A stretch of 64,000 nucleotides of DNA, from the NCBI GenBank assembly GCA_947496215.1, contig CANMCF010000023.1:2111-66110 (forward strand), written 5' to 3'. Source of the stretch: an uncultured Bizionia sp. (GTDB lineage Bacteria; Bacteroidota; Bacteroidia; Flavobacteriales; Flavobacteriaceae). Below the pieces are notes generated by a model, which was not told where the DNA came from, made no database searches, and was given only the letters and a program-made list of their open reading frames with translations. The position numbers and the translations under genes were made by a program. The first letter of the stretch is position 1. Each line of letters begins with the position of its first letter. Positions 2,833 to 23,068 of this stretch are shown one piece after another.

Positions 2833-3201
2833 CTAAATATTGGAAATATGGACCTTAAATTTACTAAATAAAGCTTTCATTTTGGTGTTTAATAGCTTAA
2901 AATCTGGCTTTTCTTTGCCAATGTATAAAATCATAAACGAATAACCATAAATGTTGTTGTCTATTAACATATTTTTATTAAGTCTGTAATTTTCACGCAA
3001 TAAGCGCTTTATCATAATACGATCCACAGCTTTTTTAAAATTTCGCTTACTTACGGAAACTCCTACCTTCAAGCCAATGGTTTCGTTCTTTAGATAAACC
3101 AATCGCAAAGGATATGCCGAAATGCTCTGACCTTCGGTAAACAATTTACCGATGGCTTTCTCGTTTTTAAGTTTTTCGGTCTTGTTATAGGTAAACTTCA
3201 T
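2833..3201 (-). CDS. rnpA: Ribonuclease P protein component
   Basis: 122-aa basic protein. It has the RnpA-type motif VSVSKRNFKKAVDRIMIKRLLRENYR and typical size. Confidence 0.85.
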   Translation of the reverse strand: MKFTYNKTEKLKNEKAIGKLFTEGQSISAYPLRLVYLKNETIGLKVGVSVSKRNFKKAVDRIMIKRLLRENYRLNKNMLIDNNIYGYSFMILYIGKEKPDFKLLNTKMKALFSKFKVHISNI

Positions 3202-3224: not shown

Positions 3225-4037
3225 CTAATTTCTCAAAGCTTTGTTACTAATGGATTCCTTTAGTTCCAACAACTGGCTTTCCAATTCATGAAGCCTATCA
3301 TAGACATCCACAGGTTCTGGCATTTGTTTTGAGGCAAACATCGTGACGTACCACACTTCCATGATGTCCTCGATGTCTATGGTGTAGGTTGGATAGTTAC
3401 CATCCTTGTTGTCACTCTTTAGAATTAACTTTCCTCGTTTGTCTATTCTGTTTATTACACGTTTTAGGACAATCCCATCATTCTTGCTTACAATGACGTA
3501 GACACGTCCGTCTTTTACTTCATTCAAGTCCTCTACATATTTTCCAAAAACCAAATCACCATCGAAAAAAGTACGCACCATGGAGTTACCTTGTACCTCG
3601 AAGCACCTGAAGGTCCCATTGGTAAGTTGTGGCATATGGAAAGATGGCAATGTTTCTATGTATTCCGTGTCTCCATACCCATCCAAGTATCCCGCACGAG
3701 CTTTAATTGGAACATAAACGACGTTTTCTTCGTTGTCTTGGTTGACGGCTATAACTTGAGGTACTCCAGAATATGTTTGAATTTGAGGCACTTCATCTTT
3801 TAACATTATAGTACTTCTTCCAAAAAGGTAATCCGGATTTATATCGAATTCTTCAATTATTGCAGATAGGACATCATATCCAGGTTTTGTTTTTTTTCGA
3901 GAACCATCAGATTGAGGTCTTCCATTGACTATGCTATCTATGGTAGTTCCCGTAACTCCTATGCGTTTTGAAAAAGAAAAGTTGTTTAGTTGGAAGTGAT
4001 TAATAATCGCTTTTATTTTATCATCTATGGTCTCCAT
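3225..4037 (-). CDS. HTH + peptidase S24 (LexA / phage CI-like) transcriptional repressor
   Basis: N-terminal HTH-like region (FSFSKRIGVTGTTIDSIVNG). C-terminal S24 fold signature with the GNSM serine motif (VQGNSMVRTF) and a downstream Lys (IVLKRV). Divergent from the large gene at 4387. Confidence 0.8.
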   Translation of the reverse strand: METIDDKIKAIINHFQLNNFSFSKRIGVTGTTIDSIVNGRPQSDGSRKKTKPGYDVLSAIIEEFDINPDYLFGRSTIMLKDEVPQIQTYSGVPQVIAVNQDNEENVVYVPIKARAGYLDGYGDTEYIETLPSFHMPQLTNGTFRCFEVQGNSMVRTFFDGDLVFGKYVEDLNEVKDGRVYVIVSKNDGIVLKRVINRIDKRGKLILKSDNKDGNYPTYTIDIEDIMEVWYVTMFASKQMPEPVDVYDRLHELESQLLELKESISNKALRN

Positions 4038-4066
4038 AAGCTATTTCAAATTAAATTAAACTTTTT

Positions 4067-4110
4067 ACAGAATACACTGTAAAATGTTTGTTTTTATTTG
4101 TAAAATGTTT
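4067..4110 (+). promoter_or_regulatory. Bacteroidota-type promoter (-33 TTTG at 4077-4080, -7 TATATTTG at 4101-4108) overlapped by two direct TGTAAAATGTTT boxes (4069-4080, 4089-4100)
   Basis: The sequence ctgtaaaatgtttgtttttatttgtaaaatgttttatatttgta matches the TTTG/TAnnTTTG consensus with about 20 nt spacing. The same architecture recurs at 13090-13152 and 22420-22463. Confidence 0.6.
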
Positions 4111-4386
4111 TATATTTGTACTGCAATAATGTTGCTAATATACAAAATTATCTATAAATCAAACATTTGTATAAAAACAGAGCAACAATTTCTTGATTTT
4201 ACATAAAAGACGTCTTGAAAAATCAAAACGACGGATAACTATTCAAACATTTTTTTGAATAGGGTGGAGAGTTATGCCTTTCATTATTAAGGCTTTGTAT
4301 TGAGGTTTACCTGTTGGAAAAGCGAAATGAAGACAGTTCTTGATAACAAGAACCCAATAATGATTATAAATTTTAAAACAATTAGA
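4111..4386 (+). promoter_or_regulatory. Long conserved 5' leader of large gene 1, containing a 9-bp-stem hairpin (4239-4247/4254-4262) and a 9-codon uORF MPFIIKALY (4274-4303)
   Basis: About 235 nt (from 4158) are nearly identical to 13187-13418, with roughly 14 differences by eye. The coding sequence that follows is clearly more diverged than that. Confidence 0.5.
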
Positions 4387-7300
4387 ATGAGAAAAGAGAT
4401 TAAACAAAACCTATTTAGATTCGTAACCTTACGTAATCCACAATTAATAGACAAAAAGGAAAGCCATCCGGGATTTGTGTATCATCCAGACGATAATTAT
4501 GAAAGAAGTGTTTATTCTGAGGTGCTTTCAGAGACAGATGAAGCAAGTAAAATGGCCTTGTCAAAAGCAGTGTCAGATGAATTTGTTCCTTTGAAGGGAA
4601 GAAAAGGCGTAAAAGACTATAGGCAAACCATATATGACTTTTCATTATGGTTGATGCGTAACAAAAACCATTTGTCGTACAAAAGCATAAAATCAAATGC
4701 ACAAGGAGTAGATAATTTGACGACAGAAGCACTTTTGGTTATCTGGGACAATTTGATATATCAAACGATAAACAAGAAATCCGTCTATGTGAGGGAAGCT
4801 TTGATACAAGTCTTGATAGCAGATCAATTCTTTAAGGCGTTCAAAGATTTCTCTGCTGGTTTATCTGGAGATATCTTGTTCACGGAAGATCAAGAAAAGG
4901 AGTTTGTTCGTAGAGCCAATGCGAGTGTTGTAATTTCGAAGGCATTATTGGCTGCAACGACGATAAAACCAACAACAAAGGAAAAAAGGGTAAGCATATC
5001 TAAAATCAAAGAGCTTGAAAATGCTACTGATGTTGCGTTGGCAAAAGAGCGAGTACAAAGATACCAAACCTTGGTTGAAGAGTTGAAAAGTGTCGAGACC
5101 AAGTATAAAAATGAGAATCAAGTCAAGTATGAAAAAGCTTTGACTGACTATAACCAGACGATTGAAAACCTTTTGAAAAAGGTGGAACCGGTAATTGTAG
5201 AGGAAACCAATACCAAAGGAGAGGTTTCAAAAATAGAAACATATCCAAATTTGGATTTGCCAAAATTTGTTTACAACAAGGAAGCGGCAATCAACAAGGA
5301 ATATTTGACGAACAAGATTTCCAAAGACTCATTGGCTATTTTGGAGGAACAAGGATTGGATGTCCATAAGGATTTTTCAGAAGTGTTTGATGCAGTAAAA
5401 ACAAAAGTCAAAGATGAAAATGAAATTATTCTTGGCAAGGCGCCTAAACAAATAAAAACGCTCAAAGTAGGAGGGGCAAGCGTTACCGTCAATCCGAGTT
5501 TGGAATCCGAACCATATGACTATAACATTAGTCCATTGCATTCTATAAATCCAGGAGGGTTGAGAAATATCAACATGTTGATATTCAATTACGTTCAAGA
5601 TTCTCAAATAACGGATGTATCCTATAAGATAACTTTTAACAATGGTACGGAAAAAACAAGTACGGATTTCACCATATTCAATTCAGGAACAACGCAAATT
5701 TTAAGATTGTTTCCAAACTTGATTGCTTTTCCATTTGGGACGCTGTCATACACATTAGAAGGGGAGATCACATTGGAAGATCAAACAAAGCTTAGCTTTA
5801 GTAAGCTTGTAAAAATGAAAAGCAGACACAACTTTGGAATGTTTGATTTGCAAAATGATGATTCTGGTGACAACCCTGTGGATTCTCAGGTATTTGGAGT
5901 TACCAACCTGGGAATAGCCGACTTTAGACGTGTGGAACAAGAAGTATGCTGTTATGTGCCTGGGGAAGTGTCCCATATAGAAAACATCATGGCGCGAGAA
6001 TACAAAGAACGTGCAACGAGAAGTTTGAACAGCATAGAGACCACCAGTGAAGAAACCTCGGAGCGTGAAACGGAAAAACTTACAGATACCACAACAACGG
6101 AGCGTAATGAAATGCAAAGTGAAGTATCTTCTGTAATCAATGAAGACAAATCCAAGAACTATGGGGCAAACGCAAGTGTAAGTGGCAAGTTTGGTACCAC
6201 AAGTTTCAATGCAGGAGCACATTTCGATGCATCATCATCCAGTTCCACATCAAACTCCAACAGCCAAGCACAGACGTATGCACAGGAAGTCACGGAAAGA
6301 GCCATGGAGCGTATTGTGCAAAAGGTGAGCAGCAAGCGTACATCCCGTATATTGAAGGAGTTTGAAGAAAACAACAAGCATGGTTTCGATAACACGAAGG
6401 GAGACAAACATATTACAGGAGTATATCGTTGGGTGGATAAAATCTACAAGAATAAATTGATAAACTATGGTAAACGTCTAATGTATGAATTTGCTATTCC
6501 AGAACCTGCAAGATTCTTAAAAGATGCATTGATTAAAAAAGCAGACGATGGGCAATTGGATTCAGGTATCATTTTACCGGTAGAGCCAGTAAAACCAAGT
6601 ACGATAGGGTTGAATTCAGCGACCAACATAAATGAAAGCAGCTACCAAGGATTTGCATCCAAATATGCTGCCGAAGTTAGTGCTCCAGTAGATCAATACT
6701 TGAAAATTGGTCGCGCTTTCTCCAAAGACGATCAGAGTTATGATGCCAAAGGATATGCATTTAACGACATTGATGTTCCAGAAGGATATTATGCAACGTC
6801 GGGAACAGTTAATTGGGCTGTGATCCAGAAGAACAATTCGCATAAGTTCATGTCCATTGGGTTGGGAGATTCAAGACATTCTGTAATTGGAGGATCTGGA
6901 AGTACGTCTTTTTATAATTTTTCTGACATCTATAAAAAGAATATCCCATTCTCATTCAACACTTGGTACATTCACTCAGGGCATTTCAATGTTACGATAA
7001 ACTGTACAAGAAGCAATGAAGAGTACAAGCAATGGCAAAATGAAACATATACTGCCATCATGGATGCCTACAACGATCGTTTGCGTGAGTATAACGAAGC
7101 TATGGCCGCAAACAACATTGTTCCAGACAACGATGAGAAAGTTTCTTTCAATCCGGCCTTCAATAGAAGTCTTGAGAAAAAAGAGTTGAAACGCATTGCC
7201 ATCGAGTTGTTGATAGATCAAGACAGAGTATCCAAAAACGATTATGTGGACGATTCTTTGGTCAAGGTTAAAAACGATGAAGCCTTCCATGCACATGCGG

Positions 7301-8337
7301 CTACGGTGAAGTTCTTTGAGCAAGCCTTCGATTGGGACATCATGGCTTATGTCTTATATCCGTATTTCTATGCGAAGCAATCGGATTGGAAGACATTGTT
7401 CCAAGAAACAGACGTTGCAGATCCTATTTTCCAAGCCTTTTTACAGTCGGGTATGGCAAGAACGGTTGTTCCTGTGCGTCCAGGGTTCGAAGATGCGGTA
7501 AACTGGTACATGTCCACGGGCGAAATCTGGAATGGGGAAGGATTGATCACAGATCAAGACGATGATCTTTACGTGTCCATCTCAGAAGAAATGGAAACTG
7601 TGGAAGGAGTAGTGGAAGAGACTTGGGAAACACGTTTGCCTACGAGTTTGACGGTGATACAAGCTGGGTCCATAGGTTTGAATGTGGAAGGCCTACCATG
7701 CAATGTGGATTGTGATGACTTTGCGTTGTTCGATTCTGATGGAAACCCAGTATTGGATTCAAACGGAAACCCATTGACAAACAACCCTATAGAGCAAACC
7801 GATGTTTTGATTGGAGGAGCCTCTGGGGTAGGAGGAACTGGTACAGAGGAACTTAAAATGGTCGAGTTTACCTTTGTGGACAACACGGGAAGCAATTTTG
7901 CCAATATAGGGGAGTATGATGCAGAAGGAGCCTTTCCTTTGGTTTTCAAATGCATGGATCAAAAAATAGAGATTCAAAGAGAAGCCCAATGGCATGCCTC
8001 AAACAGCGTTGGTGTAATCTATCAGAAATTGGCGGAACAAGTGTCTTTGATTTCAGGGATTCAGGCAAATCAAGTCTTTAGTAAGAAAGGAGATCCATTG
8101 GGAATTAGATTCAAGGTAGAGATAGCCAAAATTCCAACATTCACATTTGAGAAATTCGTTGAAAAAGGAGCGTTCTCCGAACCAAACCACGATTTATTGA
8201 AGCTAATCATCAATGATACTGCTGTAAAGGTGATATCTCCTACCGTGTATTTGGATAGAATCTTCGATAAAGCAAATACAGGGCTCAAGGAAGCAGAATT
8301 AAACATCAATTTACCTATCGATAGGTTTTTGGTATGA
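4387..8337 (+). CDS. Giant protein 1 of an unrecognised family (about 1316 aa). No signal peptide. Mosaic of conserved and variable modules.
   Basis: Uninterrupted ORF 4300-8337; the track start is a TTG, and ATG 4387 (MRKEIKQNLFRFVTLRNPQLI) aligns with the paralog. Paralog of 13419-17081. I recognise no known domain signature. Confidence 0.85.
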   Translation: MRKEIKQNLFRFVTLRNPQLIDKKESHPGFVYHPDDNYERSVYSEVLSETDEASKMALSKAVSDEFVPLKGRKGVKDYRQTIYDFSLWLMRNKNHLSYKSIKSNAQGVDNLTTEALLVIWDNLIYQTINKKSVYVREALIQVLIADQFFKAFKDFSAGLSGDILFTEDQEKEFVRRANASVVISKALLAATTIKPTTKEKRVSISKIKELENATDVALAKERVQRYQTLVEELKSVETKYKNENQVKYEKALTDYNQTIENLLKKVEPVIVEETNTKGEVSKIETYPNLDLPKFVYNKEAAINKEYLTNKISKDSLAILEEQGLDVHKDFSEVFDAVKTKVKDENEIILGKAPKQIKTLKVGGASVTVNPSLESEPYDYNISPLHSINPGGLRNINMLIFNYVQDSQITDVSYKITFNNGTEKTSTDFTIFNSGTTQILRLFPNLIAFPFGTLSYTLEGEITLEDQTKLSFSKLVKMKSRHNFGMFDLQNDDSGDNPVDSQVFGVTNLGIADFRRVEQEVCCYVPGEVSHIENIMAREYKERATRSLNSIETTSEETSERETEKLTDTTTTERNEMQSEVSSVINEDKSKNYGANASVSGKFGTTSFNAGAHFDASSSSSTSNSNSQAQTYAQEVTERAMERIVQKVSSKRTSRILKEFEENNKHGFDNTKGDKHITGVYRWVDKIYKNKLINYGKRLMYEFAIPEPARFLKDALIKKADDGQLDSGIILPVEPVKPSTIGLNSATNINESSYQGFASKYAAEVSAPVDQYLKIGRAFSKDDQSYDAKGYAFNDIDVPEGYYATSGTVNWAVIQKNNSHKFMSIGLGDSRHSVIGGSGSTSFYNFSDIYKKNIPFSFNTWYIHSGHFNVTINCTRSNEEYKQWQNETYTAIMDAYNDRLREYNEAMAANNIVPDNDEKVSFNPAFNRSLEKKELKRIAIELLIDQDRVSKNDYVDDSLVKVKNDEAFHAHAATVKFFEQAFDWDIMAYVLYPYFYAKQSDWKTLFQETDVADPIFQAFLQSGMARTVVPVRPGFEDAVNWYMSTGEIWNGEGLITDQDDDLYVSISEEMETVEGVVEETWETRLPTSLTVIQAGSIGLNVEGLPCNVDCDDFALFDSDGNPVLDSNGNPLTNNPIEQTDVLIGGASGVGGTGTEELKMVEFTFVDNTGSNFANIGEYDAEGAFPLVFKCMDQKIEIQREAQWHASNSVGVIYQKLAEQVSLISGIQANQVFSKKGDPLGIRFKVEIAKIPTFTFEKFVEKGAFSEPNHDLLKLIINDTAVKVISPTVYLDRIFDKANTGLKEAELNINLPIDRFLV

Positions 8338-8718: not shown

Positions 8719-11088
8719 ATGAACAATACAATATACAATGAAACGATTAGAGATATGACACATGTGAGCAAGTTGGCGTCTCAAAAGTTTTATAATAGGA
8801 CGGCTCCGGAAATCTCACAAATCTACTTCCCACAATCTGACCAAAAAAAAATCAAGAACATCGTGGTTGAAACAGATGTGGATACAAGTGGCAAGCTGTT
8901 GGAATATGTGACGAAACGGGTGTATTTCTATGACAAGAACAACAACAACAAGCTGGATGATGATGAACAGTTGGCCTACAATGCTTACATATACACGTCA
9001 ACAGATGCCATAAAGTTGAAAGAGACATATGAAGTGGCCGAAGCAGGGGAAGACGATGTCTTGATTTTTGTAGAAGACAACCAAGGAGACGTAAGTTCCC
9101 AGTTTTGTAGAGCTAGAGTTGGAAAAAATGTTTTGAGCAATTTAAAGAATGCAGGCCATTTATACAACAACAGGAAACTTTTGGCAAGAATAAACGAACA
9201 TGCCCCTATCGATGAAGCCGTTTTAAATGAATTGTTGAAAAAGGGAAAGATAGAGAATACCACGTTGAAGGTGTTGGAATTCTTGTTTGCAGTTCCGGAT
9301 TATCTAGGCCCTTTCAGTCCAAATACTTTTGTAATGAAAGGCTTGGGAACTATATGTGAGGAGATTGCAAAGTTTATAAACAAGGCAAAAGTAGACGATT
9401 ACAGGTGGAACCCCCAAGCTAAAAAACGCAATGAGGATGGGACAGAAGATGAAACACATGAGTTTGCTCCTTTCCTGTTTCCCTTTGTGACAGAAGCATT
9501 GGATAGCATTGATGATTCCAAGGTAAATGGATATATGCAAAAATCCATTGCAGAATTGAAAAGTTTATACGCTTCTCAAGATCAAGCCATTCAAAATTAC
9601 GTTAAGAATGTGGATGTCGGCCGCTTGGGCAATGTGCCAATTTATTTTCCCTATGGAGGTTACGTGAACGTGGAAGTGGATTTGGTTCCGGATTCCATAG
9701 AACTGTTTTTGTTTAACAAGTACTTGCAAGTGAAAAAAGTGATAGATGCGGTATTCGAGAAATTGGAAGGGTTTGATTTCACGGACCTCATCAAAAAAGG
9801 GATTACCACGGCCAATGCATTCCTATGTGGTGTTTGGAATGGTTTGGTAGATGCCATTTCCGGTATTTTCGTGCTTTTGGAAATGGTGTTCAAAGCCGCC
9901 GCTGCAATGAATGATTTCAGGCAAAACTTCAGTACGGAATTTCCAATATTGTTGGAGTATATCGATAACTTTACGGAAGCATTGAGCAGTATAGATTTCA
10001 AAGAGCTCTATACACATCTAAAAACAAAGTTGTCAGATGCATCCATAGGAAGCATATCTTTGGAAACGATTGCTTATTTTAGTGGAGCGTTCATTGGGTT
10101 TGTAATAAGTTTGGTTATTGAAATAGTCGTAGGGATTCTATTTACAGGTGGTACGTTGAGTGTGGCAGCTGTAATAGAAAAGCTAGCGGCCATATTTTCA
10201 GGATTGCTCAGAGCAGGAGCCAAGGTTTTGAAAAAGACTTTTGATTTTTCAAAAAAATTGGTGGTCAACACCTTCAAGGGGTTCAAAAAGTTGTTGCAAG
10301 GAATGATAACTCTTTTGCGTAAGGGAACAGCTGGTTTCAAAGTAATGATAGATGACATATTCAAGGCATTCGGAATTTATGCCAAGGAAGCATTGAGTAA
10401 TGCAAATTCAGGATTGATACCGTTGTTGACAAAAGCAGAATTAAACCTCTACAAGAATTTGGCAAAAGCTTTTTTCAAGCCATTCAAAAAGTTGCTTTTA
10501 AGATATGCGGATAATGCAAGGGTGTTAAGGAGGTGGAGAAAGTTGAACCCTATGGATAGTCTATTAAAAGTTGATATAGACGAACTTTTAAGACTTAGGT
10601 CTTTAAATAAAAGAGGTTACAACAAAAATACTGCAACTATGAAAGCTCAAGTAGAGGTAAATGGAGAAGTTCTTGAGTTGGAATATAAAGCTTTGGCTGG
10701 TAATAAGACTAGTGGAGAAGGATTGCTTGGTAATGTGAATAAAGACTATATAGCTAAGCAATTAGGTATTAGTATAGAAGATTTAATGAAACATTTTGAT
10801 GATATTGCTGATGATGATTTGATAAGAAGGTTTCATGATAGTGAGCATAAGATCTTTAGTGCTTTCGATGATGATGTGTTGAAGCTTCAAACCCGTTATG
10901 GTAAAGAAAGTGTAAATGTTAAGAGTGTAAACTTTAAAACACTTTACGAACCATGTATATCTTGTAAACGTCAAATGATCATTCGTCAAGAAATGCACGA
11001 ATTTTCACTTAAAGTTCAGGCAATATTAATAAAAGGTAAGAATTACGCAAAAAATAATTCAGACTTACAAAGTTTAATGTTAAAATAA
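8719..11088 (+). CDS. Membrane-module protein with polymorphic C-terminal toxin domain (deaminase-like)
   Basis: Central hydrophobic helices (GVWNGLVDAISGIFVLLEMVFKAAAA; IAYFSGAFIGFVISLVIEIVVGILFTGG) are shared with 17278-19125. The C-terminus has FHDSEHKIF followed about 35 aa later by LYEPCISCKRQM, resembling the deaminase HxE...PCxxC layout. An immunity gene starts 6 nt downstream. Confidence 0.6.
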   Translation: MNNTIYNETIRDMTHVSKLASQKFYNRTAPEISQIYFPQSDQKKIKNIVVETDVDTSGKLLEYVTKRVYFYDKNNNNKLDDDEQLAYNAYIYTSTDAIKLKETYEVAEAGEDDVLIFVEDNQGDVSSQFCRARVGKNVLSNLKNAGHLYNNRKLLARINEHAPIDEAVLNELLKKGKIENTTLKVLEFLFAVPDYLGPFSPNTFVMKGLGTICEEIAKFINKAKVDDYRWNPQAKKRNEDGTEDETHEFAPFLFPFVTEALDSIDDSKVNGYMQKSIAELKSLYASQDQAIQNYVKNVDVGRLGNVPIYFPYGGYVNVEVDLVPDSIELFLFNKYLQVKKVIDAVFEKLEGFDFTDLIKKGITTANAFLCGVWNGLVDAISGIFVLLEMVFKAAAAMNDFRQNFSTEFPILLEYIDNFTEALSSIDFKELYTHLKTKLSDASIGSISLETIAYFSGAFIGFVISLVIEIVVGILFTGGTLSVAAVIEKLAAIFSGLLRAGAKVLKKTFDFSKKLVVNTFKGFKKLLQGMITLLRKGTAGFKVMIDDIFKAFGIYAKEALSNANSGLIPLLTKAELNLYKNLAKAFFKPFKKLLLRYADNARVLRRWRKLNPMDSLLKVDIDELLRLRSLNKRGYNKNTATMKAQVEVNGEVLELEYKALAGNKTSGEGLLGNVNKDYIAKQLGISIEDLMKHFDDIADDDLIRRFHDSEHKIFSAFDDDVLKLQTRYGKESVNVKSVNFKTLYEPCISCKRQMIIRQEMHEFSLKVQAILIKGKNYAKNNSDLQSLMLK

Positions 11089-11094
11089 TAAAAA

Positions 11095-11574
11095 ATGGAA
11101 ATACAATTTTTACAAAAATTAAAACAGAATCCTAAGATTGGTGTAAGAGAAATAAAAGGAGTTTTGGAATCAGAGATCTTTGAGGTAGAGAATAAACTTA
11201 ATATTAGTTTTCCAAAATCGTATAAAGAGTTTTTATTTTTAGCAGGAGAGTCTTGTGGAGCATTACAAATATTGGATACTACAGATTTGAAAACTATTTC
11301 TTCAGATTGGCATAAAGAAATACAAAAAGAAGAATTAGAATCTACAAGGACTGAATTTGATGGACCTTTTTGGTTGTTTGCTGAAAGCAATGGATGTGAG
11401 GTTTTTCATTTCTTTTATTTGGAAGATGGTATTGATGATCCAGTGGTATTTTCTGTAGACTATGATATATATGATGATAATAAACGTATAATTAAGACCA
11501 GTGATAAAAAATTCAGCGTATTTATTGAAAATAAGATAAAATCGGCTATAAGAATAGATAAACAAGGATATTAA
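11095..11574 (+). CDS. SMI1/KNR4 (SUKH-1) family immunity protein
   Basis: N-terminal pattern ESEIFEVENKLNISFPKSYKEFLFLAGESCG is typical of SMI1_KNR4. It lies immediately after the toxin gene. Confidence 0.8.
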   Translation: MEIQFLQKLKQNPKIGVREIKGVLESEIFEVENKLNISFPKSYKEFLFLAGESCGALQILDTTDLKTISSDWHKEIQKEELESTRTEFDGPFWLFAESNGCEVFHFFYLEDGIDDPVVFSVDYDIYDDNKRIIKTSDKKFSVFIENKIKSAIRIDKQGY

Positions 11575-11876: not shown

Positions 11877-12038
11877 CTGAAAAATTAAGAGAGGATTCAA
11901 TAGTTCATCAATTCGAATGGAATGAGGTTGATGAAAATGAGGATCAAGTAGGAGAAGAGTTTGAAATTCGATTTCCAGAAGATTAATTTCCAGGTTATTA
12001 AGTAATAGTTATGCTTTGCTAATAAAACATAAAGCCTA

Positions 12039-12075
12039 AAAAAGCTCTTACATCTTATAGTAAGAGCTTTTTTAA
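12039..12075 (+). terminator. Rho-independent terminator
   Basis: aaaaagctcttac / 8-nt loop / gtaagagcttttttt: a GC-containing 11-13 bp stem followed by a T-run. Confidence 0.65.
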
Positions 12076-12098: not shown

Positions 12099-12404
12099 AT
12101 GACCTTAACAGAAGAAAAAGCAATACAATTAGGAAAGAAGATAATGTCTGACATTAATTTCGATTATGATAAAGAGGCGGAAATAACAGCTAAGTTTGTT
12201 GAAGAAAGTGATGAAGCTTTAGTTATTCCAAATAAATCTTGGTTGGTTAGTTTTCCATATGGATATGAGGATTTTGGAAGATATGTTAGAGGACATTTAA
12301 TAATTTTGGATGAAAATATGATTGGTGTAGATGTTTCAATAAGAAATGGTAGTATTAAATTGGAATATAATTCAGGTGAAGACAGGTATTATGTTAAAGA
12401 GTAA
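12099..12404 (+). CDS. Small hypothetical protein (candidate orphan immunity protein)
   Basis: 101-aa acidic ORF located between the two SUKH genes. No recognisable motif. Confidence 0.45.
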   Translation: MTLTEEKAIQLGKKIMSDINFDYDKEAEITAKFVEESDEALVIPNKSWLVSFPYGYEDFGRYVRGHLIILDENMIGVDVSIRNGSIKLEYNSGEDRYYVKE

Positions 12405-12493
12405 TTGTAATGTCAATTTATTTTTTCAGAGATAAAATCATATAGAATCTGTAATATGGTTAAGCGTTATCGTATGATGACTTGTTGGATACA

Positions 12494-12976
12494 ATGAATA
12501 TAGAATATTTAAATAGTTTAAAAGAAAACTCAGAAATTGGAAATAGAAAAATTAAAGGAGTTTCCGAATCAGAGATAACAAGTGTAGAACAAAAACTAAA
12601 TATTGCTTTCCCAAAATCATATAGGGAGTTTTTGTTTTTGGCTGGGGAATCTTGTGGGGCTTTGCCTTTATTGGAATCTGCAGATTTAAAGACATTGTCA
12701 TCAGATTTTTACAAGGAGGTTTTGGAAGAAGACATGAAAGACACCAACACTGTTATAGAGCGACCATTTTGGGTTTTTGCAGACAGTATTGGGGACCAAG
12801 GATTTTGGTTTTTCTATCTTGATGAAGAATCAGAAGATCCGCAAACCTATTATTATGCATATAAAGAAACTGAGCCTTATGAAGCGGTCATTGGTTCTCA
12901 TGAATTGATCTTTAGTGAGTTTATTGATGGAAGAATAGACTTTGGTAATCAAATAGAAAAAGAAGGTATTTGGTAA
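12494..12976 (+). CDS. SMI1/KNR4 (SUKH-1) family immunity protein, paralog of 11095-11574
   Basis: ESEITSVEQKLNIAFPKSYREFLFLAGESCGALPLL aligns with the first SUKH protein. The track start at 12482 is a TTG; ATG 12494 is more likely. Confidence 0.8.
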   Translation: MNIEYLNSLKENSEIGNRKIKGVSESEITSVEQKLNIAFPKSYREFLFLAGESCGALPLLESADLKTLSSDFYKEVLEEDMKDTNTVIERPFWVFADSIGDQGFWFFYLDEESEDPQTYYYAYKETEPYEAVIGSHELIFSEFIDGRIDFGNQIEKEGIW

Positions 12977-13000: not shown

Positions 13001-13040
13001 AAAAAAAGCCGAACTCTAATCTGAGTTCGGCTTTTTTATT
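13001..13040 (+). terminator. Rho-independent terminator closing locus 1
   Basis: Stem gccgaactc (13008-13016) pairs with gagttcggc (13023-13031). An A-run precedes it and a T-run follows. Confidence 0.75.
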
Positions 13041-13089: not shown

Positions 13090-13152
13090 AAACATTTTAC
13101 AAAACAAATAGTGTTGTAGTTGCTTTTGTTTGTAAAATGTTGTATATTTGTA
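13090..13152 (+). promoter_or_regulatory. Second copy of the promoter/operator. The upstream TGTAAAATGTT box is inverted here (13091-13101). A direct box at 13131-13142 abuts the -7 element TATATTTG at 13143-13150.
   Basis: aaacattttacaaaacaaa ... tttgtttgtaaaatgttgtatatttgta forms a 17-18 nt inverted repeat around an approximately 19-nt spacer. Confidence 0.55.
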
Positions 13153-13418
13153 ATGTAATAAGGCTGCTAATGTGCTGAAAAACTATAAATCAAACATTTG
13201 TATAAAAACAAAGCAGCAATTTCTTGATTTTACATAAAAGACGTCTTGAAAAATCAAAAACGACGGATAACTATTCAAACATTTTTTTGAATAGGGTGAA
13301 GAGTTATGCCTTTTATTATTAAGGCTTTGTATTAAGTTAAACCTGTTGGAAAAGCGAAACGATGACAGTTCTTAAAGACAAGAACCTAATAATAATTATA
13401 AATTTTAAAACAATTAGA
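13153..13418 (+). promoter_or_regulatory. Second copy of the conserved 5' leader, including the same hairpin and the uORF MPFIIKALY (13306-13335)
   Basis: Near-identity to 4111-4386. Within the uORF the only differences are ttc to ttt (synonymous) and tga to taa (stop to stop). Confidence 0.5.
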
Positions 13419-16400
13419 ATGAGCAAAGAGATTAAACAAAACCTATTTAGGTTTGTAACCCTACGTAATCCACAATTAATAGAAGACAAAAAAGAACATC
13501 CAGGTTTTGTATATCATCCAAGTGAAGATTATGACGGGAGTGCATACAGAACCATGCTTACAGAAACAGATGTTGCAAGTAAAAAAGCATTGTCTAAAGT
13601 CGTTTCGGATGAATTCACCCCTTTAAAAGGTCGTAAAGGTGTAAAGGACTATTCACAAGCAATGTATGACTTTTCGTTGTGGTTGATGCGCAATAAGAAC
13701 CATTTGTCTTATCAAAGCATAAAATCCAATGCAGAAGGAGTTGGCAATTTGACAACAGAGGCACTTTTGGTTGTTTGGGACAATTTAATATATCAAACAA
13801 TAAACAAAGAATCCGTTTATGCGCGAGAAGCTTTGATACAAGTTTTAATTGCAAATCAATTTTTAAAGGCATTTAAAGGTCTTTCAATAGGAATGGAAGA
13901 ATTTACAGATGACACTGAAAAGGAGTTTGTGCGAAGAGCAAATGCAAGCGTTGTAATTTCGAAATCCTTATTTGTTGAGAATGGAGAGAAAAGTCAATCT
14001 AAAAAAAGATTGACAGAATCTCAAGAAAAAGCAATGCTTAAAGTGATTGAAACAGAAGAAGCCAAGGAGAATTTGGCAGCTTATAAAAAATTGAATGCTG
14101 AGCTTAAAGGAATAGAGATAGGTTACAACAAGGAATCTCAAAGATCATACGATAATACTTTAAAAACGCACAAAGCATCTATAGCTAAAATATTGGCGTC
14201 AACAGAACCTGTAGTAGTTAGTGAGACAGACCCAAGAACAGGAGTTGTTAAAAAAGTTAAAACATATCCAAACTTGGAACTGCCATCGTTTAACTTTGAA
14301 AACACAAAAGCAATAGATTCCAAATACTTGAAAGAGCGATTGTCTCCAGAATCTATGCAGGTTTTCGATGCAGTAGAGTTAGGGGTTTACGATGATTTTT
14401 CTGAAGTGAACAACGCTATTAATAATCAAATTCAGCTTGTAAATCAAACGATTCTAAATAACGATTCTTCAACATCAGGAACGGTATTGGTTGGGGGAAC
14501 CACAACTACCGTAAGTGAAAACATGGCAACTTTAGACCCTTATTGCTTTTTTGTTTCTAGGTTGAGTTCAATAGGAAACCCCGGATTGACCATGTTTTTA
14601 GGAACTGGGTACTTGGGAGCTTTAGCATCGAATGCGTCTTACACTTTGGAAAACTTGGATTCTAACATAAAGTATGAAGGAACAGTAATACAAACAAATT
14701 CTAGTTTCAACAATACAAGTACGCGTTTGTTTTTTCCAATAGCTCATCCTATAGACAATAATGGGAGTTATCGTTTTTCGGGAAAATTCACATTGGATAA
14801 TGGCGTGACATTAAGTTTCGATGTTACAAACGACGTATCTAAACGAGGTGTGAGATTTAATGGTTGTTGTGATGCCGTAAAAGGAGATGATACTACAGAT
14901 CCAGCAGGAGGAGAGGTTAAGCCACAAGTGTTTGGAGTCACCAATTTAGGTATTGCGGATTTCAGACGTGTAGAACAAGAGGTGTGCTGCTATGTGCCTG
15001 GAGAAGTGTCACACATAGAAAATATCATGGCACGTGAATACAAAGAACGTGCAACAAGAAGTTTGAACAGTGTAGAAACTACCAGTGAGGAAACGACAGA
15101 ACATGAAACAGAAAACTTAACAGATACAACTACAACCGAGCGCAATGAAATGCAGAGTGAAGTTGCTTCCGTTATTAATGAGGATAAATCTCAAAACTAT
15201 GGAGCAAATGCAAGTGTGAGCTATAGTCCTACAAAAGCATTGTCCATAAATGCAGGAGGTTATGCGGATTTTTCATCATCAAGCTCTACGTCAAACTCCA
15301 ATAGTCAAGCTCAAACCTATGCACAAGAAGTGACTGAGAGAGCAATGGAGCGTATTGTTCAAAAAGTAAGCAATAAACGTACTTCTCGTATTTTAAGAGA
15401 GTTCGAAGAGAATAACAAGCATGGTTTTGACAATACCAAAGGCGATAAGCATATTACAGGTGTGTACCGTTGGGTTGATAAGATTTACAAGAATAAATTA
15501 ATCAATTATGGTAAGCGTTTAATGTATGAATTTGCGATACCGGAACCAGCTAAATTTTTTAAGGAGGCATTATGGAAAAAGTTCAAAAACGATGAATTGG
15601 GGGCTGAGGTTGTATTGCCTATAAAACCAGCTCATCCAAGAGACATTGGTGTGACTTCTCCAACGAGTATTATAGAGTCGACTTACCAATTAAAGGCGGC
15701 TGAATACAATGCAGAGGTTATTGCAGCTCCAGAAAAATACGATTATGTCGGTACGTCGTTTACTAAATCGCAACAAGGTGGAGACGGCGGAGATAACACC
15801 AATAAATCTGCCAAAGATGTCATTAAAATCCCAAAAGGATATAAAAGCATTGCAGCAAAAACAACAGGAAGACAAAAAAATGGTGCAGTTTTAATTTCTG
15901 TTGCCGGTGAAGACTTTCCTGTTAATAGTTCGTACTATTCTACAATAACTCCTCATTTGGACGAATTACCTGTTTCTGTTTCTTTTGAATGGAACTGGGT
16001 GACGAATGTAAATATAGATGTAAAGTGTGAGAGAACGGATGGAGCCTACAAACAATGGCAAAATGAGACGTTCAATGCTATCATGGAAGCTTATAATGAC
16101 CGTTTGCGAGAGTATAACGAATCGATTATTGCAAATGAGATCAACCAGAATGCCAGTGGTGAAAAATTAAAATTCAATCCATTGTTCAATAGAAGTATAG
16201 AAAAGAAAGAGTTAAAACGTATTGCGATTGAATTGATCATTGATCAAGACAGGATTTCCAAAAACAATTATAATGCAATCAATGATGCTACAGGTTTGTC
16301 AAAAGTGATGAAAACACAAGGTTTGCAAGATCATGCAGCTACCGTTAAATTCTTTGAGCAAGCATTCGATTGGGATATCATGTCATACATCTTTTATCCA

Positions 16401-17081
16401 TATTTTTATGCTAATGAAGAGAATTGGAAAGACTTGTTTCAGTCTCAAGATGCAGCAGATCCGTTATTTCAAGGTTTCTTGCAATCCGGTATGGCTAGAA
16501 CAATTGTTCCTGTTCGCCCAGGGTTTGAAGACGCAATGAACTGGTATATGTCTACTGGAGAAATCTGGAATGGTCAAGGATTGATCACGGATCAAGATGA
16601 TGACCTTTATGTGTCCATTGCAGAAGAAATGCAAACCGTGGAAGGAGAAGTGGAAGATACGTGGGAAACACGTTTGCCAACCAATTTAACTGTAATACAA
16701 GCAGGTTCAATAGGTTTAAATGTGGAAGGGTTGCCATGTAACATTGATTGCGACGATTTTGCGTTGTTTGATTCTGATGGCAAGCCAATTTTGGATGACA
16801 ATGGAAAGCAGGTGACTGAAAACCCGATAGAGCAAACCAATACAATGGTTGGGGGCGAGCTTGATCCAACCGAGTTGGAAAAGGTACAAAGCCGCTTGAT
16901 CGAAAATGTAGACATAGACAATGGTTACCTTAAACTGACCACAGAAGGAAGCAACAGGCAGACAGTTGCACAAATTTCCGTGGAAGCAATCAAACGAGCC
17001 ATAGATGAGTCGGTAGCTACTACGACGACCAGAACGTCTACCCTTGAAAAAGGCTCTGAAACAACTACGGCTTCAAGATAA
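13419..17081 (+). CDS. Giant protein 2 of the same unrecognised family (about 1220 aa)
   Basis: Uninterrupted ORF 13362-17081. ATG 13419 (MSKEIKQNLFRFVTLRNPQLI) aligns with protein 1. The N-terminal, core and C-proximal modules are shared, while two internal regions and the tail differ. Confidence 0.85.
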   Translation: MSKEIKQNLFRFVTLRNPQLIEDKKEHPGFVYHPSEDYDGSAYRTMLTETDVASKKALSKVVSDEFTPLKGRKGVKDYSQAMYDFSLWLMRNKNHLSYQSIKSNAEGVGNLTTEALLVVWDNLIYQTINKESVYAREALIQVLIANQFLKAFKGLSIGMEEFTDDTEKEFVRRANASVVISKSLFVENGEKSQSKKRLTESQEKAMLKVIETEEAKENLAAYKKLNAELKGIEIGYNKESQRSYDNTLKTHKASIAKILASTEPVVVSETDPRTGVVKKVKTYPNLELPSFNFENTKAIDSKYLKERLSPESMQVFDAVELGVYDDFSEVNNAINNQIQLVNQTILNNDSSTSGTVLVGGTTTTVSENMATLDPYCFFVSRLSSIGNPGLTMFLGTGYLGALASNASYTLENLDSNIKYEGTVIQTNSSFNNTSTRLFFPIAHPIDNNGSYRFSGKFTLDNGVTLSFDVTNDVSKRGVRFNGCCDAVKGDDTTDPAGGEVKPQVFGVTNLGIADFRRVEQEVCCYVPGEVSHIENIMAREYKERATRSLNSVETTSEETTEHETENLTDTTTTERNEMQSEVASVINEDKSQNYGANASVSYSPTKALSINAGGYADFSSSSSTSNSNSQAQTYAQEVTERAMERIVQKVSNKRTSRILREFEENNKHGFDNTKGDKHITGVYRWVDKIYKNKLINYGKRLMYEFAIPEPAKFFKEALWKKFKNDELGAEVVLPIKPAHPRDIGVTSPTSIIESTYQLKAAEYNAEVIAAPEKYDYVGTSFTKSQQGGDGGDNTNKSAKDVIKIPKGYKSIAAKTTGRQKNGAVLISVAGEDFPVNSSYYSTITPHLDELPVSVSFEWNWVTNVNIDVKCERTDGAYKQWQNETFNAIMEAYNDRLREYNESIIANEINQNASGEKLKFNPLFNRSIEKKELKRIAIELIIDQDRISKNNYNAINDATGLSKVMKTQGLQDHAATVKFFEQAFDWDIMSYIFYPYFYANEENWKDLFQSQDAADPLFQGFLQSGMARTIVPVRPGFEDAMNWYMSTGEIWNGQGLITDQDDDLYVSIAEEMQTVEGEVEDTWETRLPTNLTVIQAGSIGLNVEGLPCNIDCDDFALFDSDGKPILDDNGKQVTENPIEQTNTMVGGELDPTELEKVQSRLIENVDIDNGYLKLTTEGSNRQTVAQISVEAIKRAIDESVATTTTRTSTLEKGSETTTASR

Positions 17082-17277: not shown

Positions 17278-19125
17278 ATGAGTAATATAAATGAGAACAA
17301 TCCATTGGAGGGAATCGATTTCCCGGATGGTGTTTCAAATGCCTCTAACCTCTTTGCTGCAAATGCACCGATTTCGAATTCCATATTTCAAACTTGTACT
17401 ACAGATAATTTTTTGAATTACTTCTTTCAAGGAGCAGAGCGTAAGGATGTCGTGGAAAAAATGGGAGCTTTTGGAGGCAAGATAGTAGAAGAAACTTATG
17501 TTGGAGGAGGAATCGAAAAAGTATATAGGACAAACCGATATGTCAAAAAAGATGGAATTAGGCAAGAAGCGGGAACAGTGGTTTTGATTATTGGTACAGA
17601 TGGAGCAGAAATACTGAAGACCCATAATGGCTTGGTGCCAAAAAAAGGGGAACAAATTATCCTTCTGGAAAAAAATGACAATGATTTCTCTGGAGCCATA
17701 ATGCGTTTTAAACAGGATACAAGTATAAACATCAACAAATCCGCAGTTTCATTGACCAGTTTCATCAATAAACGCTATGAGATCACATTGGATCAATTTA
17801 AAGACATTGTCAATAGGGTAGACAACACCTCTGCTCTGGAAAGTTTGGTGATCTCGATACTTGACAATACCAAAACAGTTAGAACCGTGGCAACGGTAGG
17901 TTTGGCATTGGCAGGTAAAATGATAGACTCAGCCATAAAGGGGTTTGATGAATTTGTGGATGGTTCGCTAAAGATCGATCCTAGTTTTTGGAACCCGGAC
18001 CATAAGGATTTCAAACAGAAGGTAAATGTAACATCAGAACAAATAAAGGAGTTAACAGCCTCTTTGGATGTTATTGGTGGAAAAGTGGATGGATTGAGTT
18101 TTAAAAGCGTGGTTGCTGCCGGAGGAGCTGCATCTGTGGCAGCAGGACCGTTTGCACTTGCATTTCTGGCTCCCGGAGCAGTGGCATACAAATTATATTC
18201 CGAAGAAATAGAATTGGTGTTCGATAAGATGAAGGCTCAAATAAAAAGCGCCCTAAAGACTCTTAAGGAATTTTTGAACAATACGTTGGAAAGCCTGATA
18301 AAAGGCATAAATACGACAATAAATGTCGTATTGGCTTTTATTTCCGGAGTTTGGTCAGGTTTGGTGGACTTTGTTGCAGACATCATAAGGCTCTTCCTGT
18401 TCTTGGTGAAATTGGCTGTGGCCGGTGCAGGAAAAGTAAATGAGGTGATTGGTGTTAAAGAAGGGGATTCCAAAGCATTTGTAAAGAACTTTGGGTTGTA
18501 CTATAACCTCATCTTGGAAAACATAGATAATACGTTGCAAGGTTTGGGAGCAGTAAACTGGTTGGAATTCTTCAAGGAATCCTTTTTAAAGTTCGAACTG
18601 TTGAAAATACGTATCCTAGCCAAGATCTTCGATAAGGCCGGGAAGACTCTGGACGGATTGAATTATGCTGAGTGGGCCTATTACATAGCCTATGCCATAC
18701 TATTGATTGCAGATATCATATTGTCCTTCTTCTTTCCTGGTCTGTTGGCAACCAAAATAGCCAAATTAGGCAAGGCAGGAAAGGTGTTGGCGAAAATCAT
18801 TGTAGCTGTGCAGGATGCTATGGCACTTGTATTTAAAATAGGGTTTAAGACAGTTGCCTTTGGTGTGAAAAGCATTATAGGTGTTTGGTCCAGCATTGTA
18901 GGTATTTTAAGAAAGGGAACTAAAAAACTCTTGGAGTTTTTGGATGTAGTGTTCGCTAATCTGGCAAAGGTGTTCGATGAGGTTATTACTGGGGTGTCTA
19001 AAGCGGCAGAAAAGGCTTACAAGTCTTTGTTTAATGTAACTGAACGAAGTTTGATAGATAAGTTGGGCTTAAAGGTAAGTAAATACGAGGATGACATATT
19101 AACACTTTGTCCGATAGGCAAATAA
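17278..19125 (+). CDS. Membrane-module protein, paralog of the central part of 8719-11088
   Basis: LAFISGVWSGLVDFVADIIRLFLFLVKLAVAGAG and GILRKGTKKLLEFLDVVF align with GVWNGLVDAISGIFVLLEMVF and LLRKGTAGFKVMIDDIF of the 789-aa protein. The N- and C-termini are unrelated. Confidence 0.7.
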   Translation: MSNINENNPLEGIDFPDGVSNASNLFAANAPISNSIFQTCTTDNFLNYFFQGAERKDVVEKMGAFGGKIVEETYVGGGIEKVYRTNRYVKKDGIRQEAGTVVLIIGTDGAEILKTHNGLVPKKGEQIILLEKNDNDFSGAIMRFKQDTSININKSAVSLTSFINKRYEITLDQFKDIVNRVDNTSALESLVISILDNTKTVRTVATVGLALAGKMIDSAIKGFDEFVDGSLKIDPSFWNPDHKDFKQKVNVTSEQIKELTASLDVIGGKVDGLSFKSVVAAGGAASVAAGPFALAFLAPGAVAYKLYSEEIELVFDKMKAQIKSALKTLKEFLNNTLESLIKGINTTINVVLAFISGVWSGLVDFVADIIRLFLFLVKLAVAGAGKVNEVIGVKEGDSKAFVKNFGLYYNLILENIDNTLQGLGAVNWLEFFKESFLKFELLKIRILAKIFDKAGKTLDGLNYAEWAYYIAYAILLIADIILSFFFPGLLATKIAKLGKAGKVLAKIIVAVQDAMALVFKIGFKTVAFGVKSIIGVWSSIVGILRKGTKKLLEFLDVVFANLAKVFDEVITGVSKAAEKAYKSLFNVTERSLIDKLGLKVSKYEDDILTLCPIGK

Positions 19126-19138
19126 AACCGATACATGT

Positions 19139-22419: not shown

Positions 22420-22463
22420 CTGTAAAATGTTTGTTTATTTTCTGCAAAATGATTATATTTGTA
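22420..22463 (+). promoter_or_regulatory. Third copy of the promoter/operator (boxes tgtaaaatgttt 22421-22432 and tgcaaaatgatt 22443-22454; -7 TATATTTG at 22454-22461)
   Basis: ctgtaaaatgtttgtttattttctgcaaaatgattatatttgta has the same architecture as 4067-4110. The downstream leader is unrelated. Confidence 0.55.
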
Positions 22464-22623
22464 TTCGCTTTTCTAACAACGGTTTACCGAAGTTAAAATT
22501 AATTCGTGTTAAGTAGAAACCCAAAAACCTAGGCTTAATCTATATCTGATTAAGAAAAAACAAGCAATGGAAGTCTTTGGTCAGTGGTTTGGTCTACTTG
22601 AAGTTAAAAAATCAAACATATGT

Positions 22624-23061: not shown

Positions 23062-23068
23062 ATGAGAT

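Follow-up and report, generated by a model that had tools for sequence, protein, structure and literature searches.

The leader that precedes each of two giant genes in a stretch of DNA from an uncultured Bizionia sp. (contig CANMCF010000023.1 of GenBank assembly GCA_947496215.1, positions 2,111 to 66,110 of the forward strand) is likely, in our view, to act also in trans, as an antisense partner of the mRNA of a lysis cassette, coupling in this way the production of cargo to cell lysis. The whole stretch, 64,000 nucleotides (nt) long, is called here the window, and all positions are counted from its first letter. This proposal is built on the complementarity between one hairpin of the leader (P5) and the predicted 5' end of the lysis mRNA, and on the way in which both sides have changed together in other genomes. 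The elements directly involved are the following.

4123 to 4386, + strand: leader A, about 265 nt long, conserved upstream of homologous giant genes, with no Rfam match
4387 to 8337, + strand: giant gene A (1316 amino acids), with function unassigned by Pfam, PHROG and PDB
13155 to 13418, + strand: leader B (-7 promoter box at 13143-13150; invariant motif at 13188-13201; hairpin P3 at 13271-13294; upstream open reading frame (uORF) at 13306-13335; core of hairpin P5 at 13344-13358; hairpin P6 at 13368-13385)
13419 to 17081, + strand: giant gene B (1220 amino acids)
4306 to 4336, + strand: hairpin P5 of leader A with the antisense element (stem CTGTT 4311-4315 / GACAG 4332-4336)
22464 to 22485, + strand: target, i.e. 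the first ~22 nt of the predicted lysis transcript (TTCGCTTTTCTAACAACGGTTT), complementary to P5 of both leaders
22464 to 22623, + strand: lysis leader of about 160 nt, with the helix GTAGA 22511-22515 / TCTAC 22593-22597
22624 to 23503, + strand: lysis cassette, with a CHAP endolysin (22624-23061) and a holin (23069-23503), identified by Pfam (CHAP, Phage_holin_4_1) and PHROG (endolysin, holin)

Complementarity between the leaders and the lysis mRNA

Read in reverse complement, the segment TTCGCTTTTCTAACAACGGTTT matches the P5 element of each leader (4306-4328 in A, 13338-13360 in B), which gives a complementarity of 16-22 base pairs (bp) between P5 and the predicted 5' end of the lysis mRNA, the lysis promoter being located 18 kb downstream of leader A and 9 kb downstream of leader B. 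The P5 core is CTGTTGGAAAAGCGAA, at 4312-4326 and 13344-13358, with the invariant loop (A/G)GAAAAGCGAA, and the 15-mer core has three matches in the window (0.05 expected). The predicted duplexes with the lysis target have energies of -28.8 (copy A) and -26.3 kcal/mol (copy B).

The comparison was extended to 25 non-identical leader/lysis pairs, each taken from one contig and belonging to Tenacibaculum, Kordia, Winogradskyella, Psychroserpens and other genera. RNAduplex energies lie between -20.4 and -31.7 kcal/mol in all 25, against about -9 to -11.5 kcal/mol for shuffled targets (minimum -20.5), and in every genome the complementarity begins 2-5 nt past the last G of the -7 box. The natural variants of P5 (among them AGAAAAGCG, AGAAAGCG, AAAUAAGC and UCAUUAG) are accompanied by changes in the target. 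There are compensated indels, GCGAA/UUCGC to GCAA/UUGC and AAAA/UUUU to AAA/UUU (four A·U pairs against three, in the loci L020 and L024; L numbers designate the loci compared), and a compensated substitution, UGUUAG/CUAACA to UAUUAG/CUAAUA (L032 and L045); Kordia has UCAUUAG/CUAAUGA, with inserted UCA/UGA, and L036 (Tenacibaculum sp. ZS6-P6) has AAAUAAGC/GCUUAUUU, with transversions on both sides. The flanks are also compensated, from AAACC/GGUUU to UAAAC/GUUUA and to GAAC/GUUC.

When the two partners are concatenated in one alignment, 10 of the 20 intermolecular pairs have changed on both sides and the 14 core pairs pair in ~99% of cells, compared with 41-51% in slid registers; none of 500 shuffles reaches the covariation score. 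Likewise, cognate partners bind with a predicted energy of -27.5 vs -20.9 kcal/mol for non-cognate ones, with none of 20000 permutations as good. Altogether the helices contain 465 Watson-Crick pairs, 20 leader-G:lysis-U wobbles and 2 U:G wobbles, and no A·C mismatch in the core. Positions that are not Watson-Crick are thus confined to G·U wobbles, a pattern expected if two + strand RNAs are paired and not expected of a shared DNA site.

The latter is the rival that these data address most directly, namely that what the two loci share over 16-22 bp is a DNA element, placed in opposite orientations, either a protein site (e.g. for the CI-like repressor encoded next to promoter A, described below) or the inverted repeats of a recombinase. 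Both copies do lie near promoters of one regulon, where identical DNA sites would seem to covary, and another motif, CAAACATTT, also occurs in both orientations around these promoters. Nevertheless, the core differences are all of the A/G or C/U type that leaves a G·U pair, and A·C or transversion mismatches are absent; unlike the usual dimeric helix-turn-helix (HTH) sites, the sequence is not a palindrome, and in the leader it is presented on hairpin P5. As for recombination, an inversion would give the giant genes and the lysis promoter nonsensical orientations, and no recombinase family is found among the island proteins scanned. We therefore regard a DNA element as improbable.

Several points weigh against pairing of the two RNAs, or limit what may be concluded from it. 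Because the sequences are related by descent, the shuffle and permutation counts overstate significance, although each compensatory event remains valid by itself. The G·U bias rests on roughly 7-10 independent events, and it is the only part of the covariation that opposes a protein-bound DNA site, given that two copies of one such site in opposite orientations would also covary. Both transcription starts are derived from the promoter consensus, and a lysis start 5 nt or more further downstream would cost the duplex a few pairs. The stem of P5 itself has no compensatory change in a 15-leader count (direct reading gives one case, CUAUU/AAUAG in L045). Finally, activation of the endolysin start by unmasking was tried and rejected: when the lysis mRNA is folded with nt 1-22 blocked the predicted accessibility of the start region is unchanged, which favours neither sign of regulation, and a predicted closure between the 5' end and the coding sequence (CDS) is not conserved. 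When the two complete leaders, that of the giant gene and that of the lysis cassette, were submitted together to duplex prediction, the outcome was one sloppy global duplex, poorly separated from shuffles, which does not inform on a second contact.

Structure of the leader

The comparative data point to a leader that folds into six hairpins, of which P1, P2, P3, P4 and P6 covary and P5 has no compensatory change in the counted set. Given that full leaders are AU-rich and that their helices shift register between clades, the helices were defined by hand and counted on sub-alignments; RNAalifold, applied to a MAFFT alignment of 22 full leaders, returned no structure. A covariance model of the 3' domain (R1) matched window-type leaders plus L042 and L183, and not the Tenacibaculum leaders that have no P4. 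In leader A, the hairpins other than P5 are located as follows.

4131 to 4186, + strand: P1 (GTTGCT 4131-4136 / AGCAAC 4181-4186; ATAC 4140-4143 / GTAT 4169-4172)
4193 to 4226, + strand: P2 (TTGATTTT 4193-4200 / AAAATCAA 4219-4226), with a variable apex
4239 to 4262 (13271 to 13294 in leader B), + strand: P3 (CTATTCAAA-CATTTT-TTTGAATAG), the hairpin noticed in the first-pass annotation
4276 to 4293, + strand: P4 (GCCTT 4276-4280 / AAGGC 4289-4293), overlapping the claimed uORF
4337 to 4352, + strand: P6 (TTCTTG / CAAGAA); G4336 pairs with C4353 or alternatively closes P5

P1 encloses the invariant motif AATCAAACATTTGT (4157-4170) and is compensated even between the two window copies (GTTGCT/AGCAAC in A, GCTGCT/AGCAGC in B). 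Elsewhere its variants are GTCG/CGAC, AATGCTAA/TTAGCATT, AATTGCTAA/TTAGCGATT, GTGTTATTA/TAATAACAC, and CTCT/AGAG plus TTA/TAA with a bulged C, so that the same loop may be closed by unrelated sequences (as in the AATTGCTAA/TTAGCGATT and GTGTTATTA/TAATAACAC genomes). A duplex between the flanks of motif 2 is predicted in 33/33 leaders (mean z -1.8) and brackets the motif as P1 in 30 of them, L021, L027 and L266 being the other three. P2 covaries in Tenacibaculum (AGATTTCAA/TTGAAATCT, GAGATTTTA/TAAAATCTC, AGGGTTTT/AAAACCCT); in leaders of the window type this AU helix is weak (z about -0.3 to -0.9).

The 9-bp hairpin P3 is present exactly where it had been placed in both leaders, is conserved across genera and covaries. 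Its sequence has only these two matches in the window (0.00 expected by chance); one of its positions is occupied by CG in 8, GC in 3, UA in 3, AU in 2 and GU in 1 of the leaders counted, and another by UA in 10, UG in 5 and AU in 2. In P1b 85.5% of cells are paired, and P3 together with P1b has a covariation score of 0.265, compared with 0.146 in shuffles, with 0/500 shuffles as high. P3 is kept in Kordia and has a shorter variant in Dokdonia.

The stem of P4 is paired in 94.5% of cells, with CG in 10, UA in 3 and UG in 2 at one position, and covaries from GCCTT/AAGGC to GTCTT/AAGAC; it is absent from several Tenacibaculum leaders. In P6, 5 of the 6 pairs have changed on both sides (e.g. GTTCC/GGAGC, and GCTCT/AGAGC by direct reading). 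Taken together, P4, P5 and P6 are paired in 91.5% of cells, vs 36-57% with slid partners, and no shuffle in 500 is as high. The transcribed strand is given by the G·U pairs of the leader hairpins, which lie on the + strand. One further candidate from a column-pair scan, in which GCUAAUAUAC would pair at long range with the P5 loop, was discarded because this loop persists in leaders whose P1 sequence is different.

The upstream open reading frame

The first-pass annotation had drawn attention to a conserved 9-codon uORF coding for MPFIIKALY, which is indeed present in both window copies (ATG..TGA at 4274-4303 and ATG..TAA at 13306-13335, + strand); its length and peptide are not conserved beyond close relatives. 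The ORF that starts at the conserved ATG was measured in 19 leaders and has 2 codons in 11, 3 in 1, 4 in 2, 8 in 1 and 9 in 5, the 9-codon leaders (four with MPFIIKALY and one variant) being all close relatives.

That translation of MPFIIKALY regulates the giant gene is, in these circumstances, very improbable, and a conserved leader peptide is rejected on this comparative evidence. Of the 21 matches of the 3'-domain model, 19 keep the sequence ATG-(C/T)CT, with which a minimal ORF of a start plus one codon is compatible. However, lengths of 2, 3, 4, 8 and 9 codons leave nothing conserved past M-(P/S), two of those 21 matches (L042 and L183) have AAA instead of ATG, the uORF segment is wholly missing in several Tenacibaculum leaders, and the stem underneath, in whose 5' strand (that of P4) the ATG lies, covaries as RNA. 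A search for a leader-peptide attenuator found no conserved alternative terminator/antiterminator pairing, only the weak P4 hairpin followed by TTTGTATT, with P4 dispensable in Tenacibaculum.

Conservation of the leader across genera

Comparison of the two window copies confirms that the leader is more conserved than the CDS that follows. By segment, identity between A and B is 84% from the transcription start site to P1, 100% in P2-P3, 89% in P4-P5 and 90% from P6 to the ATG, against 77% in CDS positions 1-300 and 62% in positions 301-900. In 50-nt windows it reaches 96-98% over 4166-4290 and stays at 86-98% up to the start codon, falling to 62-80% within the first 150 nt of CDS and to 40-55% deeper. 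The estimate by eye of about 14 differences between 4158-4386 and 13187-13418 agrees with the pairwise alignment (~15 substitutions and one indel), while the start of the leader had been set too early: position 4111 belongs to the -7 promoter box and is not RNA, transcription beginning probably at ~4123 by the promoter consensus.

The gene starts used here (4387 and 13419) are those at which the N-terminus M-x-K-x-I-K-x-N-L-F-R-F-V-T-L-R begins, kept in >70 loci; two in-frame ATGs located before them (4327 and 13362) were discarded as starts, as many of these loci have a stop codon directly upstream of the conserved N-terminus. Giant proteins A and B are 58% identical in amino acids and match nothing in Pfam, PHROG or PDB sequence searches; a Foldseek search against PDB with an AlphaFold model of residues 470-1120 of copy B, a poor model (pLDDT 53), returned nothing below E = 0.001. 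The protein has 104 homologues, mostly in marine Flavobacteriaceae.

Loci for comparison came from a giant-protein profile search of one-genome-per-species contigs (80 of 356 genomic loci, with five added later). By BLASTN and nhmmer, the leader is found at the same position (about -300 to -1) in Bizionia, Lacinutrix, Psychroserpens, Olleya, Winogradskyella and strain ALC-1, and likewise in Pontimicrobium, Tenacibaculum, Pseudotenacibaculum and Aureitalea; only its 5' half was found in Dokdonia, and hairpin P3 and the P5 element in Kordia. The leaders of homologous loci in related genomes are thus conserved when aligned, and their hairpins covary (in the sub-alignment counts given above). The leader is a conserved, structured non-coding RNA element, present in at least eight genera of Flavobacteriaceae.

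Gene conversion, offered in the first-pass annotation as the alternative explanation, accounts for at most part of this pattern. The giant proteins of leader-bearing loci have just 35-60% identity to the query, hence gene conversion between the window copies is not the main cause, and conservation over at least eight genera is beyond its reach. Mosaicism between paralogous leaders is nonetheless observed. Window gene A and its counterpart in L004 have the same CDS (100% identity over the 900 nt that were compared) and a P4-P5 segment only 90% identical, whereas in that segment leader B, L004 and L006 are 99-100% identical to one another; leader B and L006, from two nearly identical genomes, are 99-100% identical from P2 onward, with a CDS identity of just 58-66% (window 13419-14300 vs L006 993-1900, first 900 nt). 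Some recombination between paralogous leaders has therefore occurred, and a hypervariable, exchangeable N-terminal part of the giant gene contributes to the contrast between leader and CDS seen in the first-pass annotation. It seems, from these alignments, that the leader provides a conserved flank by which alleles of the hypervariable N-terminal region are replaced. The extreme version, in which the leaders have no function and are alike by recent duplication or gene conversion, would draw on the mosaic pattern of the window, L004 and L006 leaders; it is contradicted by a leader kept across genera with 35-60% giant-protein identity, in which both the structure and the complementarity in trans are maintained by compensatory change, and we give it hardly any credence, even less than control by the uORF.

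Searches in other collections were mostly negative. No Rfam 15 family matches the leader (the sole match at the gathering threshold in the window is a tRNA at 48267), and region 4040-4420, searched at E up to 10, gave only chance matches to eukaryotic snoRNAs, miRNAs and lncRNAs (12-22 bits, for thresholds of 45-100). We found no description of the leader or of the toxin-lysis system in the literature. In viral contigs, two DNA-pattern scans gave chance matches or none, and a protein scan of IMG/VR found one locus, the system being essentially absent there; a metagenome scan with a too degenerate pattern returned 120 stretches, 2 of them real.

Some loci have unusual arrangements. In Dokdonia (L022 5289-5991, and also L017, L018, L033, L048 and L069) the leader is ~690 nt long and contains no ORF of 50 amino acids or more; only the 5' domain is common with the window, and there are P5-like elements (CACUUUAAGAAAAGAG, plus CACAUUAGAAAAGCGAG in L048 and L069), the lysis promoters of this genus lying beyond the retrieved DNA. 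In L266 (1960-3000) and L268 (2040-3000; Pontimicrobium sp.), the repressor-proximal promoter bears only the P1 part of the leader and is followed by ~650 nt with at most one short, probably spurious ORF (77 amino acids, L266), after which come a second promoter, a full leader and the giant gene. In L031 (2784-5671, Tenacibaculum), what follows the repressor, the promoter and the leader's 5' domain is a DUF2589 gene with two further genes that match nothing in Pfam; the giant gene comes after these, behind another promoter and a degenerate leader. The arrangement of L031 indicates that the leader module is not strictly tied to the giant gene.

Regulation in cis

The first-pass annotation had suggested a cis-regulatory RNA controlling the giant gene. 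Its RNA nature is borne out by the conserved structure, whereas the strongest evidence for what it does concerns pairing in trans with the lysis mRNA; a role in cis may coexist. The stricter alternative is that the leader works in cis only, as a riboswitch, a protein-binding leader, an attenuator or an element for processive antitermination, and that the match to the lysis mRNA is functionless. A row of hairpins between promoter and start codon, with invariant single-stranded motifs that could bind a factor, would suit such a role; P4 followed by TTTGTATT meets loose terminator-scan criteria in both copies; and the 5' domain, kept even in the ~690-nt Dokdonia leader, fits a promoter-proximal role at the level of transcription.

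The hairpins of the leader stand separately in a row, without any conserved junction of several helices, and no expression platform was found, although a new riboswitch class is conceivable; no Rfam riboswitch or leader family matches it. There is no convincing terminator/antiterminator alternative, and P4 is missing in several Tenacibaculum leaders. Concerning antitermination, there is no NusG-like match among the island proteins scanned against Pfam and no terminator between giant and toxin genes that would call for it. Most importantly, action in cis only leaves unexplained a 16-22-nt complementarity maintained through substitutions and indels in 25 pairs. We consider it as improbable as the DNA element discussed above.

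A proposed mechanism coupling cargo to lysis

According to the mechanism that we favour, the giant-gene mRNA would be transcribed from a Bacteroidetes-type promoter common to both giant genes and the lysis cassette. Hairpin P5 would then present the 16-22-nt element CUGUU(A/G)GAAAAGCGAA, with its flanks, to the extreme 5' end of the endolysin/holin mRNA, and pairing of the two in the cell, as their co-evolution suggests, would tie suicidal lysis to the cargo, i.e. the giant protein and the downstream polymorphic toxins. Two outcomes may be envisaged. In the first, the duplex would bury the 5' terminus and protect or activate the lysis mRNA, lysis being licensed only when cargo mRNA is present; in the second, the duplex would trigger antisense decay or delay lysis. 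We lean slightly, and without much conviction, towards protection or activation, because the pairing starts at the predicted 5' terminus in every genus. The target is ~140 nt upstream of the endolysin AUG, which makes direct occlusion of the start site unlikely.

A second link between leader and lysis gene, judging from where it recurs, is the invariant motif AAUCAAACAUUUGU, which occupies the loops of both P1 and P3, has one more copy just ahead of the endolysin AUG, and does not covary. The P3 loop and upper stem carry the second copy (TTCAAACATTTT), the P3 loop repeating UUCAAACAUUUU, and the copy before the endolysin start codon is AATCAAACATATGT (22610-22623). The motif is near +35 in the leader, whose 5' domain is promoter-proximal, and it is also present, inverted, in the -33 regions of promoter A and of the lysis promoter. 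The motif CAAACATTT, with the near-palindromic core CAAA-CA-TTTG, has 9 copies in the window vs 2.9 expected: four are in the leaders and two, inverted, lie in these same -33 regions, and a one-mismatch variant precedes the endolysin start. The invariant motif may be an RNA site for a factor, the leader then being a decoy of the endolysin start region, or else a set of auxiliary DNA operators for the repressor.

Combining both links, the leader could be imagined as an RNA hub that licenses or times lysis in a probably SOS-inducible weapon, made of a giant protein and polymorphic toxins and released by lysis, with P5 capturing the lysis 5' end and the two motif copies acting as decoys for a factor of endolysin translation. 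We put this forward only tentatively, as rather doubtful. If it were true, lysis would occur only in the cells, and at the times, in which cargo mRNA is abundant, the coupling being achieved purely by mRNA-mRNA contacts.

The lysis leader, the promoters and the island

The start of the CHAP endolysin is taken at 22624, and not at 22567 as given by the ORF finder, on account of the conserved N-terminus MSIINKALSEYGVKE and of stop codons in other genomes. The long-range helix of the lysis leader covaries (G(U/C)AGA / UCU(A/G)C) and there is an internal purine-rich element, GGUUAAGAAA, as seen in a comparison of the window with L001, L007, L016, L019, L020, L025, L029, L032, L037, L042 and L068; in the consensus that RNAalifold gives for lysis leaders, no pairing involves the 5' tail that contains the target. 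The lysis leader is a second candidate RNA family outside Rfam. The remaining features of the region are listed below.

3225 to 4037, - strand: repressor gene with HTH and peptidase S24 domains, CI/LexA-like (Pfam HTH_19 and Peptidase_S24; PHROG transcriptional repressor / CI-like repressor)
4063 to 4118, + strand: promoter A with operator-like repeats (-33 element TTTG at 4087-4090, TGTAAAATGTT, and -7 element TATATTTG at 4111-4118)
8719 to 11088: protein with a C-terminal deaminase toxin domain (789 amino acids)
11095 to 11574 and 12482 to 12976: SUKH immunity genes
17278 to 19960: 615-amino-acid protein and EndoU toxin
21872 to 22372: endonuclease V-like gene
22420 to 22461, + strand: lysis promoter, the third promoter copy (-7 box TATATTTG at 22454-22461)

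The promoter boxes were assigned with the known Bacteroidetes consensus, TTTG / TAnnTTTG. The promoter 44-mer is repeated at 13109-13152 and 22420-22463 and is conserved across genera, and TGTAAAATG is present in all three promoters. The repressor gene is divergent from promoter A and adjoins the promoter and leader in other genera too, and between it and promoter A there is a perfect inverted repeat, TTTTACAG-N6-CTGTAAAA, at 4063-4084. This repeat and TGTAAAATG are probably the operators of the HTH-S24 repressor, and the shared promoter is probably repressed by this adjoining CI/LexA-like protein.

By appearance, the region from 3225 to 24228 is one island, inserted beside rnpA (2833-3201). 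It contains two strong intrinsic terminators (12037-12074 and 13002-13037), the first of which is inside operon A, before additional 'orphan' immunity-type genes (12099-12404 and 12482-12976), and, on the opposite strand, a 412-amino-acid ORF (20417-21655, - strand) without Pfam or PHROG match. Islands with giant gene, toxins and lysis cassette are widespread in marine Flavobacteriaceae, including the fish-pathogen genus Tenacibaculum. From its gene content, the island may be an SOS- or damage-inducible toxin system released by lysis.

Comparison with known systems

Release of bacteriocins, tailocins and large toxins by lysis kills the producer, and how the time and the cells in which lysis genes fire are chosen is a problem only partly solved. 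If the mechanism proposed here is true, the cargo mRNA itself reports to the lysis mRNA, which would be a simple and portable coupling device. It would also add an example of trans-acting mRNA-mRNA regulation, with >20 natural compensatory variants, in the Bacteroidota, where trans-acting RNA regulation is barely charted. Additionally, two RNA families outside Rfam are defined, the giant-gene leader and the lysis leader.

In function, the nearest analogues are the brakes that act on bacteriocin lysis genes after transcription. CsrA represses the lysis gene of colicin E7, and the lysis cassette of Yersinia entomophaga reportedly mediates the holin/endolysin-dependent release of large toxins (type 10 secretion). 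As here, a toxin locus under SOS-type or other regulation is combined with release through a lysis module that is separately restrained at the post-transcriptional level; in those systems, however, the restraint is exerted by proteins (CsrA, a PhoB-like regulator), and we know of no cargo-mRNA antisense element described for bacteriocin or type 10 lysis systems.

With respect to mechanism, CopA/CopT, Sok/hok and P22 sar are loop-presented antisense RNAs encoded in cis, opposite their targets. They share with P5 a recognition sequence located in a hairpin loop and the 5' strand of its stem, as well as a long, near-perfect complementarity, and the P5 loop, which begins with UUAG or UUGG, fits the YUNR pattern of such RNAs; the difference is that here the partners are separate loci, 9-18 kb apart, whose match is kept by co-evolution. 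Leaders acting in trans and dual-function mRNAs are known from SreA and SreB, which act on prfA in Listeria, and from RNAIII in Staphylococcus. In SreA and RNAIII, as proposed here, an element of an mRNA or leader doubles as the antisense regulator of a distant mRNA. Nevertheless, SreA is a terminated riboswitch fragment, whereas no ligand-binding core or terminator is evident in the giant-gene leader, and RNAIII directs several C-rich loops against Shine-Dalgarno regions, whereas the target here is 140 nt upstream of the start codon.

In Listeria monocytogenes, the 3' untranslated region (UTR) of hly pairs with the 5' UTR of prsA2, and this mRNA-mRNA pairing at the 5' end of the target stabilises it (Ignatov et al. 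2020, PMC8722363). There, as proposed here, one full-length mRNA, that of a secreted effector, pairs with the very 5' end of the mRNA of a functionally linked partner, coupling their expression. The Listeria regulator is a 3' UTR and its target is the mRNA of a chaperone, with protection from RNase J1 shown experimentally; in our case the regulator would be a hairpin of a 5' leader and the target a lysis cassette, in the Bacteroidota, known from sequence alone. Among the systems compared, hly-prsA2, SreA and the loop-presented antisense RNAs thus appear to be the closest in mechanism, and the natural covariation that accompanies the putative pairing of leader and lysis mRNA is unusually rich.

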